Shown: positions 55,359-62,442 of the stretch, in pieces | How the letters are laid out: each line of letters starts with the position of its first letter | Numbering within the stretch: position 1 is the stretch's first letter | DNA from: Clostridia bacterium | GTDB taxonomy: Bacteria; Bacillota; Clostridia; Christensenellales; QALW01 | NCBI GenBank assembly: GCA_045541035.1 | Contig: JAZQII010000059.1 | Span: forward strand, 899-64,898 | Direction: 5' to 3' | Length of the DNA stretch: 64,000 bases | Notes under the pieces: generated by a model | Seen by the model: the letters and a program-made list of their open reading frames with translations, nothing else | Told to the model about the DNA's origin: nothing | The model's database searches: none | Position numbers and translations under genes: made by a program

Positions 55359-55387
55359 TTGACAGATGGGGCATTTTGTTATATTAT
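55359..55387 (+). promoter_or_regulatory. SigA promoter of the Leu T-box leader
   Basis: TTGACA-17 bp-TATTAT. Confidence 0.7.
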
Positions 55388-55407
55388 TATAAAAAATTAA
55401 ATGATAA

Positions 55408-55674
55408 ATGCCATGAAGATATTAAACGTGTGTATTTTGCGCTTTCAGAGAGTCGCTGGTTGGTGTAAAGCGATAGGCAGGGCAAACGTTGTCTCGTATC
55501 GGAGCAGGGCCTCGGAATTTCAGTAAGAGGCTTCGGGAGTTCCCGTAACAGAACAAGGGTTTGTTTGAACCTTATTGAGTGGCTCAGATTTTGAGCAATA
55601 CGGGTGGTACCGTGGTCAAATAATTTGTTGATCATCCCGCGAAGATATAATGTATCTTTGCGGGTTTATTTTTT
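55408..55674 (+). ncRNA. T-box riboswitch, Leu specifier (CUC at 55493-55495)
   Basis: K-turn GCCATGAAGATA/TATCGGAGC, AGAGA bulge, GGTTGGTGTAA loop, T-box AATACGGGTGGTACCGTGG (55597-55615), terminator 55636-55674. Confidence 0.9.
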
Positions 55675-55695: not shown

Positions 55696-57060
55696 ATGAA
55701 GAAAATTGCAGTTTCCGACAACACACTTTTTGCAGTTGCGGAAGAAAAAAAGACACTTACTTTCAGAGAAAAACTTAACGTTTCAGCAGCGCTTGATGCT
55801 TGCGGATTTGATAATATTATTCTACCTCAACTGCTAAATGAAAAGGAAAATGCCATCGTTTACCGTACTATTGCTTCTGCCGTTGAAAATGCTTCTGTTA
55901 CAGTTTCCGTTTCTGATGAATCAAAGGTTGAAAGCGCATGGGAATCTGTTAAAGATGCTAAAAATCCCTGGATTTCAATAGTTGTTCCCGTTTCTACGGT
56001 GCAGATGGAATATCAGTATCATCTTAAAGCAACAAAAATGCTTGATAAGATTACTGCTCTTTGCGAAAGCGCAAAAAAATATACTGATAATTTTTCAGTT
56101 GTATTAAAAGATGCAACCCGTGCTGAAGACGGTTTTTTAAAAAAATGCGCAGAAACAGCATCAAAAGCAGGTGCAAAATATATTACCGTTGTTGATGATG
56201 CAGGTATTGCTTTCTCTGAAGAAATTTTTAAAATGGTTTCTGAAATCAAAGATATTATTCCTGTTTATGTTCAGCCGTCGGATATGCTTAAAATGGCTGC
56301 TTCATGCGCAGTTGAAGCAATTAAGGCAGGGGCAGAGGGTATAGTTACATCTACCGTTGGTCCTTGGCTTCGCGCTGATGTTTTATCTGATATTTTAAGG
56401 GCAAGAGGATTTGATCTTCAAACAGAAACGAGTCTTGATAAAACCAATATCCACAGAACTGTTGATGAGATCAACGTTAAAGGTGAAGCCGTTAAGGAAA
56501 TAAATATTGAAGAAAAACTTATTTCAGGTCTTGATGAAAGTGCAACGATAGATGATATCAAAGCCGCCGTACAGACTTTAGGCTATGAACTTTCCAGCGA
56601 AGATTACGGCAAGGTTTTTGAAGAATTTAAGCGCGTATCTCAAAAGCGCGGTGTTATCGGTGCAAGAGAGTTGGAAGCAATTATTGCAACAAGCGCAATG
56701 CAGGTGCCCTCAACATATCATCTTATAAACTACGTTGTAAATAACGGTAACGTTATTACTGCAACTGCAAGCATTATTCTTGAAAAAGACGGTGAAAGAA
56801 TTTCAGGTGTTGCAACGGGCGACGGTCCCATTGATGCTTCATTCCACGCCATTGAACAGATAATCGGTCATCATTACGAACTTGATGATTTTAAAGTTGA
56901 ATCTGTTACAAAGGGCAGGGAAGCCGTTGGGTCATCAATTATCCGTCTTCGTGCTAACGGAAAACTTTATTCAGGAAACGGTGTTTCCACCGATATTGTT
57001 GGCGCATGTATCCGTGCTTACGTCAACGCACTTAACAAAATAGTTTACGAGGAAAACTAA
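55696..57060 (+). CDS. LeuA-like protein: degenerate HMGL-like barrel plus intact LeuA regulatory domain
   Basis: C-terminal GDGPIDA and STDIV.AC..AYVNALN present. Catalytic DTTLRDGEQ, HxHND and GERAGN motifs are replaced. Confidence 0.85.
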   Translation: MKKIAVSDNTLFAVAEEKKTLTFREKLNVSAALDACGFDNIILPQLLNEKENAIVYRTIASAVENASVTVSVSDESKVESAWESVKDAKNPWISIVVPVSTVQMEYQYHLKATKMLDKITALCESAKKYTDNFSVVLKDATRAEDGFLKKCAETASKAGAKYITVVDDAGIAFSEEIFKMVSEIKDIIPVYVQPSDMLKMAASCAVEAIKAGAEGIVTSTVGPWLRADVLSDILRARGFDLQTETSLDKTNIHRTVDEINVKGEAVKEINIEEKLISGLDESATIDDIKAAVQTLGYELSSEDYGKVFEEFKRVSQKRGVIGARELEAIIATSAMQVPSTYHLINYVVNNGNVITATASIILEKDGERISGVATGDGPIDASFHAIEQIIGHHYELDDFKVESVTKGREAVGSSIIRLRANGKLYSGNGVSTDIVGACIRAYVNALNKIVYEEN

Positions 57061-57061
57061 T

Positions 57062-59512
57062 ATGAAATTTGCTTTTTCAACCGAAAACGTAAAGGCACTT
57101 TCGTTTTTGGAATATTGTAATATAACAAGTCAATACGGCTTTCAGGGGTTTGAGATCGCCGATCCCTTTAATGAGAAAAAAGATCATGACGACAGCGTTT
57201 TTCATTCTTCACAGATGAATGCGTCAAAAAGAAAACTTGTAAACCGCCACATTGATATAAGCGTGGTATCATTTCCAAAAAAGATAGATAAAAATACCGA
57301 CGCTGAACAACTTAAAAAAGCCGTTGAAATGGCGGCTATGGCAGGAGTTGGTAAAGTTTGCGTTTCTTTTTCGGAGATTCCTGAAGAAGAAACACTTAAA
57401 AATATTTTTGCGCCTGCTGTGGCTATTGCCGAAAGGTACGATATGTCAATTCTTATTGAAACTGACGGCGTACTTTCCGATACTAAAAAGGTTCTTGATG
57501 TTATAAACGTTTTCAGCAATGCTGTTTTCGGCGTTTCCTGGAACATTCGCGAAACGTACTTTAACCATAAAGAATCTGCCGATGAAACAATTCAGACTTT
57601 AGGCGCATATATAGAATATGTAAGAATCGGTGATAAAAAGGGCGAAAACAACGTTTTGATGGGCGAGGGTGAATTACCTGTTAAAGACTTCGTAAACGCC
57701 TTAAAAAGCCTTAATTTTGACGGTTACGTTTGTGCTTTATGGAATGATGAAATTACAGATCCCGATATTGTGCTTACACATTTTATCAGTTTTATGCAGA
57801 ACAGCGAAACAAAAGAGACTGAAGAAATTCACTATAACAGATCGAAAACGGGCACTTTCCCTTGGAAGAGATATGATGTTTTAAATATCACTTTTTCTGA
57901 AGTTCTTGATACAATGGTAGAAAAGTATCCCGATCAGTATGCTTTTAAATATACTACTCTTGATTATACGAGAACTTACTCTCAATTCCGCGATGACGTT
58001 GATAAAGTTGCGGCAGCGCTTATTTCTTTAGGTGTAAAACCAGGTCATCACGTTGCTATCTGGGCAACAAACGTGCCCCAATGGTTCTTAACTTTCTGGG
58101 CATCGGTTAAGATCGGCGCAGTTTTGGTAACTGTAAACACCGCATATAAAATTCATGAAGTTGAATATCTTTTAAGACAGTCCGATACCCATACTCTTGT
58201 TATGATAGAGGATTGTAAGGATTCTAACTATAAAGAAATTATCGAGGAACTTTGCCCCGAACTTAAAAATATTGAGCCGGGCAAACCCTTATATTCAAAA
58301 GCATTGCCGTTCTTAAGAAACGTTGTTTCAGTTGGATTTAATATGGACGGTTGTCTTGAATGGGATGATTTTATGAAGCGCAGCGATCTTGTTCCAAGAG
58401 AAGAAGTGCGCAGACGTGCTTCCATGGTTAAGCCTGATGACGTATGTAATATGCAGTATACTTCAGGTACAACGGGATTCCCCAAGGGCGTTATGCTTAC
58501 CCATAACAACATTATCAATAACGGCAAGATAATCGGCGACAGAATGGATACTTCTACCGCTGACAGAATGATGATTCAAGTGCCTATGTTCCATTGCTTC
58601 GGCATGGTACTTTCAATGACTAATATGATGACCCACGGCGGAACTATCTGCCCGATGCCGTATTTCTCGCCAAAATCATCTCTTGCATGTATCCACAACG
58701 AGAAGATAACGTGCTTTAACGGTGTTCCCACCATGTTTATTGCAATGTTCAATCATGAGGATTTTGCAAAAACAGATTTTTCACATATCAGAACGGGCAT
58801 TATGGCAGGCGCAAACTGTCCTGCTGATCTTATGCGCCGCGCTGCTGACGAAATGAACATGAAAGAGATTATAAGTGTTTATGGTCAGACGGAAGCATCT
58901 CCCGGTTGCACTATGGGCGAAGTAAACGAAGATATCGATCACCGCGTTGAAACGGTAGGCAGTGCTTTCCCCGGTGTTGAATGTAAGATTATTGATCCTG
59001 AAACGGGAGAAGAATTGCCTGACGGTGAAAACGGTGAGTTCGTTGCACGCGGCTATAATATTATGAAAGGATATTATAAAATGCCAAAGGCAACGGAGCA
59101 GACCATTGATAAAGACGGTTGGCTTCATTCAGGTGATATCTGTATGAGAACACCTGACGGATACTATAAGGTTACGGGCCGCTTAAAAGATATGATCATT
59201 CGCGGCGGTGAAAACCTTTATCCAAGAGAGATAGAAGAATTTTATCTTACTCACGAAAAAGTCCGCGACGTTCAGGTAGTCGGTGTTCCCGATGAACGCT
59301 ATGGCGAAGAAGCCTGCGCCTGGATAATTATTAACGAGGGCGAAACAAGCGACGAAAATGAAATGCGCGCCTACGGTGATTCCCATATGGCAAAGCACAA
59401 AGTTCCCAGATATTTTGTGTTTACCAAGGAATTTCCAATGAATGCGGCAGGTAAAATTCTTAAATATAAGATGCGCGATCAGTCTATTGAAATTTTAGGC
59501 TTAAAAAAATAA
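57062..59512 (+). CDS. Fusion of a xylose-isomerase-like (AP_endonuc_2) barrel and an AMP-forming acyl-CoA synthetase
   Basis: QYTSGTTGFPKG, YGQTE, GWLHSGD, RLKDMIIRGGENLYP and NAAGKILK motifs; about 255-aa TIM-barrel N-terminus. Confidence 0.88.
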   Translation: MKFAFSTENVKALSFLEYCNITSQYGFQGFEIADPFNEKKDHDDSVFHSSQMNASKRKLVNRHIDISVVSFPKKIDKNTDAEQLKKAVEMAAMAGVGKVCVSFSEIPEEETLKNIFAPAVAIAERYDMSILIETDGVLSDTKKVLDVINVFSNAVFGVSWNIRETYFNHKESADETIQTLGAYIEYVRIGDKKGENNVLMGEGELPVKDFVNALKSLNFDGYVCALWNDEITDPDIVLTHFISFMQNSETKETEEIHYNRSKTGTFPWKRYDVLNITFSEVLDTMVEKYPDQYAFKYTTLDYTRTYSQFRDDVDKVAAALISLGVKPGHHVAIWATNVPQWFLTFWASVKIGAVLVTVNTAYKIHEVEYLLRQSDTHTLVMIEDCKDSNYKEIIEELCPELKNIEPGKPLYSKALPFLRNVVSVGFNMDGCLEWDDFMKRSDLVPREEVRRRASMVKPDDVCNMQYTSGTTGFPKGVMLTHNNIINNGKIIGDRMDTSTADRMMIQVPMFHCFGMVLSMTNMMTHGGTICPMPYFSPKSSLACIHNEKITCFNGVPTMFIAMFNHEDFAKTDFSHIRTGIMAGANCPADLMRRAADEMNMKEIISVYGQTEASPGCTMGEVNEDIDHRVETVGSAFPGVECKIIDPETGEELPDGENGEFVARGYNIMKGYYKMPKATEQTIDKDGWLHSGDICMRTPDGYYKVTGRLKDMIIRGGENLYPREIEEFYLTHEKVRDVQVVGVPDERYGEEACAWIIINEGETSDENEMRAYGDSHMAKHKVPRYFVFTKEFPMNAAGKILKYKMRDQSIEILGLKK

Positions 59513-59521
59513 AAAAAACAG

Positions 59522-59550
59522 TTGACAAGATAAAAACATCGTGCTAAAAT
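59522..59550 (+). promoter_or_regulatory. SigA promoter of the Ile T-box leader
   Basis: TTGACA-17 bp-TAAAAT with TG extension. Confidence 0.8.
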
Positions 59551-59571
59551 TCATACATAATTAAATATAAA

Positions 59572-59840
59572 GGCTATGACGAAGACGGAACCAATCAAGG
59601 TTTCACAGAGAGTCGGGGCAGGTGGAAGCCCGATAAACAAAGGTTGTTATTCCTATCACTTCTGAGCTGAAGATCCGAAAAAATATTTGTAGGCGTCTTC
59701 CGTGATTGCTGCGTAAAGGCATCGGGCTTGTAGGAGCTTTAAGGGGTACGGGTCATACCGTGCAAATTGAGTGGTACCGCGGGTATTGTTAAAAAACATG
59801 ACTCGTCTCAATGATTTTTGAGACGGGTCTTTTTATTTTT
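59572..59840 (+). ncRNA. T-box riboswitch, Ile specifier (AUC at 59655-59657)
   Basis: GGCTATGACGAAG/CTTCTGAGC K-turn, CAGAGAG, GGTGGAAG loop, T-box AAATTGAGTGGTACCGCGG (59764-59782), terminator 59800-59840. Confidence 0.92.
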
Positions 59841-62168: not shown

Positions 62169-62183
62169 TCTCATATATTAAAA

Positions 62184-62442
62184 GGCTTTGACGAAGAGGG
62201 AATTATAGCTTCAGTCCAAAGAGAAACGGCGGTTGGTGTAAGCCGTTGTCTGAACTGTGATTTTTGTAGCTTCTGAGCCGAAAGGAAGAAAGAATTTTTA
62301 TTCAAGTAGAACCTTTCCGTTATTGCTGCGTAAATGCATAAGGCTTGTTTGAGTCTGAGGTGGCACAGTTTGTGCAATTTGAGTGGTACCGCGGGTAATG
62401 TTTGCTCGTCTCAAAGTAATCATATCTTTGAGGCGGGCTTTT
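62184..62442 (+). ncRNA. T-box riboswitch, Val specifier (GUA at 62266-62268)
   Basis: GGCTTTGACGAAG/CTTCTGAGCC K-turn, AAGAGA, GGTTGGTGTAAG loop, T-box AATTTGAGTGGTACCGCGG (62376-62394), terminator 62404-62442. Confidence 0.92.

Follow-up and report, generated by a model that had tools for sequence, protein, structure and literature searches.

It is long established that Clostridia of the gut and rumen depend on, or can draw on, isovalerate, isobutyrate and 2-methylbutyrate to make leucine, valine and isoleucine, with the genes involved and their control poorly defined. A precedent for the regulatory logic proposed below is the HisZ-HisG(S) pair, in which a catalytically dead histidyl-tRNA synthetase paralogue senses histidine as the regulatory subunit of ATP phosphoribosyltransferase. 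This pair may serve as a model for a pseudoenzyme that keeps amino acid binding and regulates an enzyme in the supply route of that amino acid, although at the locus described here the target of regulation would be an acyl-CoA ligase, the pseudoenzyme modules would number two (a dead LeuA and a dead barrel) and the complex itself is a proposal. To our knowledge, the short branched-chain acyl-CoA synthetase MbcS of S. aureus has neither a fused barrel nor T-box control. MbcS is reported to activate branched short-chain acids such as isovalerate and 2-methylbutyrate (PMC10026030, PMC11167679). MbcS and the ligase studied here are both AMP-forming acyl-CoA ligases, with MbcS, unlike the latter, feeding membrane fatty-acid synthesis. 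Searches of the literature found no description of a barrel-ligase fusion or of T-box control of branched-chain acyl-CoA ligases.

The whole stretch of DNA analysed, termed the window, comprises 64,000 nt of a Clostridia bacterium (assembly GCA_045541035.1, contig JAZQII010000059.1, positions 899 to 64,898, forward strand). It encodes a protein in which an N-terminal xylose-isomerase-like TIM barrel is joined through a linker to an AMP-forming acyl-CoA ligase, and which starts 1 nt after the stop codon of a LeuA-like gene in a unit headed by a Leu T-box (Table 1). Elsewhere in the Clostridia, metal-intact barrel::ligase fusions and split pairs stand behind Leu (CUC) T-boxes; the window shares their architecture, orthologous ligase and Leu T-box and is nested in their tree, whereas its clade differs from these intact forms in having no metal site, a barrel only about 25-30% identical to theirs and a dead LeuA-like gene gained directly upstream. 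In the ligase part of the window protein, Pfam matched AMP-binding at residues 285-672 and AMP-binding_C at 723-798, the best NCBIfam model being the PRK12583 fatty-acid-CoA-ligase subfamily at 672 bits, which is under its cut-off. A full-length AlphaFold2 model built on 40 near-identical homologues was uninformative on inter-domain packing (pLDDT 66, pTM 0.43, with a poor ligase domain).

Table 1. Features of the Leu unit and of the T-boxes downstream of it, in window coordinates.
Feature	Position	Strand	Basis or remark
Promoter-like site of Leu unit (TTGACA, 17 nt, TATTAT)	55359..55387	+	Consensus scan, 11/12 matches
T-box leader, specifier CUC (Leu) at 55493-55495	55404..55642	+	Rfam RF00230, 107 bits (gathering score 93); codon from cmscan alignment
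Terminator hairpin of Leu T-box	55636-55664	+	
LeuA-like protein, 454 aa (HMGL-like barrel + LeuA_dimer regulatory domain)	55696..57060	+	Pfam, NCBIfam, alignment to LeuA structure 3ewb
Barrel-ligase ORF, 816 aa	57062..59512	+	
N-terminal xylose-isomerase-like TIM barrel, residues 1-248	57062..57805	+	Pfam, AlphaFold2, Foldseek, ligand alignments
First ligand Glu, ILIET, E133 kept	57458-57460	+	
DxxH reads WNIRE, D to N161	57542-57544	+	
DxxH reads WNIRE, H to E164	57551-57553	+	
HxKD reads YVRIGD, H to R188 (K to G190)	57623-57625	+	
HxKD reads YVRIGD, D191 kept	57632-57634	+	
Last ligand Glu reads CALW, E to L226	57737-57739	+	
Linker, residues about 249-274, predicted disordered	57806..57883	+	Both AlphaFold models give pLDDT of about 25-50
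AMP-forming acyl-CoA ligase domain (AMP-binding + AMP-binding_C)	57884..59512	+	Pfam, NCBIfam PRK12583-like
Ile T-box, AUC	59567-59813		Drives ligase with HTH + cupin N-terminus
Val T-box, GUA	62179-62416		Drives ligase with HTH + cupin N-terminus

The preliminary description had read the N-terminal ~255 residues as AP_endonuc_2-like, and this was borne out by a PF01261 match to residues 22-226 at 49.2 bits against a gathering score of 31.1 (E 7e-13 for the domain alone) and by an AlphaFold2 model of residues 1-265, for which 42 homologous barrels were aligned (pLDDT 92.6). The model has eight beta-alpha units with strands at residues 2-6, 29-32, 65-70, 98-101, 129-133, 156-161, 184-189 and 222-225. 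The motifs that had first suggested the fold are present as YGFQGFEI (25-32), ILIET (129-133) and NFDGYV (218-223), with the helix motif at 207-214 also in place but reading VKDFVNAL rather than the FKDFVNAL originally given. A Foldseek comparison with the PDB, proposed at the same time, returned xylose-isomerase-like barrels only (E about 1e-11 to 1e-12, TM 0.7-0.77), named as L-ribulose, D-allulose and D-tagatose 3-epimerases, AsbF, UlaE, Art22 and MJ1311, with E 3e-12 and TM 0.72-0.77 for the matches to 3-epimerases, AsbF and UlaE. Taken together, the Pfam score, the confident model and the Foldseek matches show that the fold assignment is not a chance pattern. Finer classification gave less, with weak, sub-threshold likeness to FrlC, UlaE, IolO and hydroxypyruvate isomerase in NCBIfam, the bare label 'sugar phosphate isomerase/epimerase' in the ESM Atlas and, in a profile search of 1.8 billion representatives, mostly fragments from the barrel's own family. 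The ketose 3-epimerases (2hk0, 5zfs), UlaE (3cqj), AsbF (3dx5), IolI (1i60) and MJ1311 (3wqo) share the (beta/alpha)8 fold with detectable sequence homology; the window barrel differs from them in being fused to an acyl-CoA ligase, under Leu T-box control and with no sugar genes around it.

It differs from them also at the metal site. Residue-level alignments to 4kw2, and profile-search alignments to MJ1311 (3wqo) and IolI (1i60), placed the ligands at the WNIRE, YVRIGD and VCALW positions that had been guessed beforehand, with no complete metal site in the structural alignment. E133, the Glu that forms the first metal ligand, and D191 of the HxKD motif are still there, whereas three ligands out of four have given way to other residues (N161, R188, L226) and the His of DxxH is gone, leaving E133 as the sole remaining ligand of the E-D-H-E site. 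Conservation was followed in 75 barrels, comprising the window and 68 close relatives (the 69 barrels of clade A) together with a sister group of six (clade S; L075, L077, L078, L080-L082). Clade S carries the canonical WDINH, HVHVKD and SYECQPE motifs, by which its metal site is intact, and scores 94-97 bits to PF01261 against 49-59 bits for the window's clade, the range over intact relatives being 94-118 bits. E133 and D191 are invariant in all 75 barrels, while position 161 is N in 68 and D in the six of the sister clade, position 188 is R in 67 and H in six, and position 190 is G in 69 and K in six. Position 226 is variable (A in 39, D in 11, E in eight, S in six and L in five of the 75), an acidic residue being retained there in 13 of the 69 clade-A barrels.

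Relative to intact barrels, clade A is fixed for D to N161, H to R188, K to G190, R to F167 and P to T165, and has newly conserved K56 and R57 on the helix at 52-61. The residues facing its pocket are highly conserved (E31, E133, T134, W160, N161, R163, R188 and D191), and the side chain of R188 may occupy the place, flanked by E133 and D191, where the metal once sat. On such conservation the pocket would also fit a new ligand-binding site or a metal-independent catalytic one. The earlier proposal of a non-catalytic barrel is well supported where a metal-dependent isomerase/epimerase mechanism is concerned, with three of four ligands gone and the replacements fixed clade-wide.

Nor has the domain turned out to be dispensable or poorly conserved. 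Nei-Gojobori estimates on the closest pairs gave dN/dS values of 0.05-0.17 for the barrel and 0.01-0.03 for the ligase in the degenerate clade A, and of 0.06-0.08 and 0.016-0.027, respectively, in the intact clade S, all of which are rough because dS is high and near saturation. The clade-A barrel is clearly constrained, slightly less so than the intact barrel. Ligand loss combined with purifying selection identifies a retained pseudoenzyme domain.

The pairing of barrel and ligase is widespread. The barrel::ligase architecture recurs in over 1000 proteins and in at least 595 species genomes, and a search with the ligase domain of 399 genomes sampled across the class (match at E<=1e-120) found matches in 202, falling into three tiers of identity. 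The first, at 83-87%, consists of the 44 genomes of clade A (ORFs of about 820-830 aa), the second holds fused forms at 63-71% (ORFs of 820-900 aa) and the third unfused ligases of about 570 aa at 52-55%; to the fused intact forms compared, the window's ligase domain is 60-71% identical. Stand-alone intact barrels may lie directly downstream of unfused ligases, as at L120 (669-1460, 99 bits to PF01261) and L122 (3203-4021, 118 bits), and an orthologue of the L122 barrel was present in 158 of the 399 genomes. Barrel and ligase, as a fusion or as separate genes, occur together in about half of the sampled genomes. Outside clade A (n=355), ligase and canonical barrel were both found in 147 genomes, the ligase only in 11, the barrel only in 11 and neither in 186, a co-occurrence for which any formal P value is overstated because the genomes are related, with the partnership still plain. 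In clade A, a search at E<=1e-25 found no canonical barrel anywhere in the 44 genomes, so that the intact form has been lost there altogether. Where stand-alone intact barrels lie away from a ligase they have no T-box, and their neighbours are unrelated (purL, a glycosyltransferase, an L,D-transpeptidase) and give no functional clue. An exception was seen in one other genome (L136), which has an aminotransferase-barrel-ligase operon. Roles for the intact barrel with sugars or Amadori compounds, in glyoxalase-like 2-hydroxyacyl-CoA isomerisation, in pyrophosphatase activity and thioester proofreading were weighed and dropped with nothing in their support.

The order of events was followed in ligase-domain trees (IQ-TREE in quick mode, and FastTree with more rows) and in 41 further loci sorted by upstream gene and metal-site state. 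Unfused ligases lie on one side of the midpoint root and fused forms with no LeuA-like gene make up a grade, while the LeuA-like-positive forms are a single nested clade (support 99), inside which the intact clade S is the sister group of clade A (99). An intact site is the majority form in related gut Clostridia, and barrels with no LeuA-like gene upstream have the full E/D/H/H/K/D/E set in 21 of 21 cases. The decayed sites all fall inside the LeuA-like-positive clade, interleaved with 19 intact LeuA-like-positive barrels, and comprise clade A, which is the most degenerate lineage, L102 (S164, R190, I226), L142 and L143 (N161, F167, with K190 lost), L146 (N161, R163, G164, R190, I226) and L151 (E133T, with the upstream region missing). 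There were thus at least four losses of the metal site inside this clade and none among the 21 barrels outside it, a link that rests on about 4-5 events since related genomes are not independent samples. The confinement of decay to the LeuA-like-positive subclade fits a shift in the role of the barrel after the LeuA-like gene arrived. The barrel was not acquired for docking LeuA, because its pairing with the ligase is far older and wider than the LeuA-like gene, which many of the 147 genomes lack.

The LeuA-like protein lacks the RDGEQ and HxH catalytic motifs in the degenerate and intact clades alike, as judged by motif alignment and comparison with 3ewb. Its gene lies immediately upstream of the barrel-ligase gene, adjacent or overlapping, in all 76 loci with upstream DNA, which suggests translational coupling. 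Since decay of the metal site follows its arrival, the LeuA-like protein probably took over the task of that site or made it redundant and, given that this protein is catalytically dead too, a regulatory or structural task common to both is more likely than a chemical one. Leucine control is common to all the forms, whether fused or unfused and with or without the LeuA-like gene. Every T-box found, in the window and at eight other loci (9/9), reads CUC in the same register, these loci being L102 (fused, LeuA-like gene present), L107, L108, L109 and L111 (fused, no LeuA-like gene) and L119, L121 and L122 (unfused).

Downstream of the Leu unit the Ile and Val T-boxes each drive a further ligase (Table 1), and beyond the window end on the same contig (L141) the Val ligase is followed by genes for a class IV aminotransferase, a ParA/Mrp-like P-loop protein and the alpha (POR_N + PFOR_II) and beta subunits of a 2-oxoacid:ferredoxin oxidoreductase. 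No LeuA or LeuC was found above cut-off in the window's genome, which is 96% complete. The substrate of the Leu-controlled ligase is taken from this context, by which the enzyme is most likely an isovalerate-CoA ligase, and the locus fits a route in which isovalerate is activated, reductively carboxylated to 2-oxoisocaproate and then transaminated to leucine.

From these observations the N-terminal 250 residues are probably a pseudoenzyme barrel derived from a widespread and apparently functional metal-binding partner of the ligase, the site of which decayed after insertion of the dead LeuA and the remaining role of which is non-catalytic and linked to the LeuA-like protein. In the order of events seen on the tree, a metal-binding barrel that regularly accompanies the Leu-T-box-controlled acyl-CoA ligase of Clostridia, whether fused to it or encoded separately, came first. 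A dead LeuA paralogue keeping its leucine-binding regulatory domain was then inserted directly upstream in one subclade, after which the metal site decayed several times, apparently having become dispensable, with the domain kept under purifying selection. What is left of the barrel would be structural or regulatory in function, most likely keeping the ligase bound to the LeuA-like leucine sensor or passing on the sensor's signal, such that leucine may hold back the ligase protein itself in addition to acting through the T-box.

This scaffold or coupling role is favoured over a re-made pocket, a metal-independent enzyme and a plain stability module. The barrel could itself be the small-molecule sensor, with R163 and R188 offered to a carboxylate and E31, E133 and D191 to an ammonium or polar group, binding leucine, 2-oxoisocaproate or isovalerate and exerting allosteric control over the ligase, whether or not the LeuA-like protein takes part. 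Fixed rather than random replacements (N161 in 68/69 and R188 in 67/69 clade-A barrels), the invariance of E133 and D191, purifying selection on the barrel and the ligand-binding-type N-terminal domains (HTH + cupin) of the paralogous Ile and Val ligases all speak for a sensor, but an Arg flanked by the two acidic ligands that remain could just as well be a structural substitute, closing the pocket in place of the lost metal, and the variability of position 226 (A, D, E, S, L) would be odd for a tuned binding site, so that direct sensing by the barrel is doubtful. Conservation of active-site-face residues, together with the catalytic look of the ancestral intact barrels and their close association with the ligase, could point to an enzyme working by a metal-independent or altered mechanism, at a step between isovalerate and leucine or in a clean-up reaction. 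In ketose 3-epimerases two of the E-D-H-E ligands form the catalytic Glu pair. The second Glu of that pair is lost in the window barrel as L226, and all characterised members of the fold family returned by the searches use the E-D-H-E metal site, of which three ligands out of four are gone here; moreover the other decayed lineages (L102, L142, L143, L146 and L151) have decayed at different positions, which looks like relaxed constraint and not like convergence on a new mechanism. Continued catalysis is accordingly highly improbable.

Much the same low standing is given to a barrel serving merely for folding, solubility or oligomerisation, with no link to leucine or the LeuA-like protein and with decay arising because ecology made an ancestral side reaction unnecessary. 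Such a module would accommodate the long, flexible linker, the ligases with no detectable barrel (11 of 158 genomes) and a barrel-ligase link that predates the LeuA-like gene; it would leave unaccounted for the confinement of decay to the LeuA-like-positive clade, with its four or more events against none outside, and the unbroken adjacency of the two genes with the translational coupling that it suggests, which makes it a very unlikely explanation. A bolder reading would have the barrel and the dead LeuA as successive protein-level sensors of an isovalerate-to-leucine salvage ligase, the metal barrel having bound a metabolite (for example a metal-chelated 2-oxo acid), the LeuA pseudoenzyme with its leucine pocket kept having later taken over the sensing, and the barrel, its own site decaying repeatedly, having stayed as the coupling piece. 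This succession of sensors is speculative and on balance unlikely; if true, it would place an acyl-CoA synthetase under the government of a T-box and two pseudoenzyme TIM barrels.

New in this work are the degenerate state of the clade-A barrel, the figures for co-occurrence of ligase and barrel, the split forms and the association of the LeuA-like gene with a metal site that was lost more than once. The locus brings together three T-box-controlled ligases, a transaminase and a 2-oxoacid:ferredoxin oxidoreductase, with the Leu ligase accompanied by two TIM-barrel modules that both appear to have lost catalysis. The series that begins with split genes and passes through fusion and the gain of a dead LeuA to the recurrent decay of the metal site is a natural experiment in the change from enzyme to pseudoenzyme. 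It also shows where the intact barrel, which roughly 40% of the sampled Clostridia genomes carry, should be studied for its function.

The ligase domain of the Leu ligase (window 57884-59509) was unusually conserved, with 83-87% amino-acid identity between it and its relatives in MAGs whose labels span several families and dN/dS values of 0.01-0.03, whereas the N-terminal barrel and the LeuA-like protein encoded directly upstream were each just 45-58% identical to their counterparts. The complete operon of the window's clade (clade A) was also present in two MAGs labelled Spirochaetales (L059 and L062), with the sequences nested among those of Clostridia on the ligase-domain tree, reflecting either gene transfer or binning error.

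The association between barrel and ligase takes several forms in other genomes. An operon in which the intact barrel is a separate gene was found in one genome (G118; see table), while two others (G125 and G179) each encode a fused barrel-ligase plus a separate stand-alone barrel orthologue. The ligases at loci L113 and L114 lack the N-terminal barrel, with ORFs of 587-619 aa, yet lie inside the fused clade on the tree, and a barrel orthologue is encoded elsewhere in both genomes (G192 and G138, respectively). The position of these two ligases within the fused clade looks like secondary loss or splitting of the fusion. In the genome of the window, the sole other xylose-isomerase-like barrel match (C52:13314-13655) is not an orthologue; it is a weak hit, with 34% identity across 107 residues and E 5e-7.

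The window's genome, which is 96% complete, did not yield a canonical leucine pathway, with no LeuA or LeuC above the family cut-off in the whole genome and a LeuB-like gene scoring 269 bits, under its cut-off of 353.

Coordinates of the T-boxes and of aminotransferase-containing gene sets
Feature	Location	Details
T-box, Ile (AUC) specifier	window 59567-59813	83 bits, just below the Rfam gathering score
T-box, Val (GUA) specifier	window 62179-62416	91 bits, just below the Rfam gathering score
Class IV (branched-chain type) aminotransferase, ParA/Mrp-like P-loop protein, 2-oxoacid:ferredoxin oxidoreductase alpha and beta subunits	L141:2476-5978	contig C59 of the window's genome (G000), just beyond the window
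Class IV aminotransferase, intact stand-alone barrel, AMP-binding ligase, in that order	L136:3122-6544	G118

No intrinsic terminator was found 3′ of the Leu ligase (window 59512-59550) and the Ile unit has a promoter-like site that begins 10 nt past the stop codon, such that Leu operon transcripts may read through into the Ile T-box leader. The ligases driven by the Ile and Val T-boxes both have an N-terminus made up of HTH_3 plus Cupin_2. Immediately after the Val-T-box ligase come the class IV aminotransferase and then the genes for the P-loop protein and the two oxidoreductase subunits. Together with the ligases, these genes would complete, within one cluster, the conversion of branched-chain acids into amino acids.
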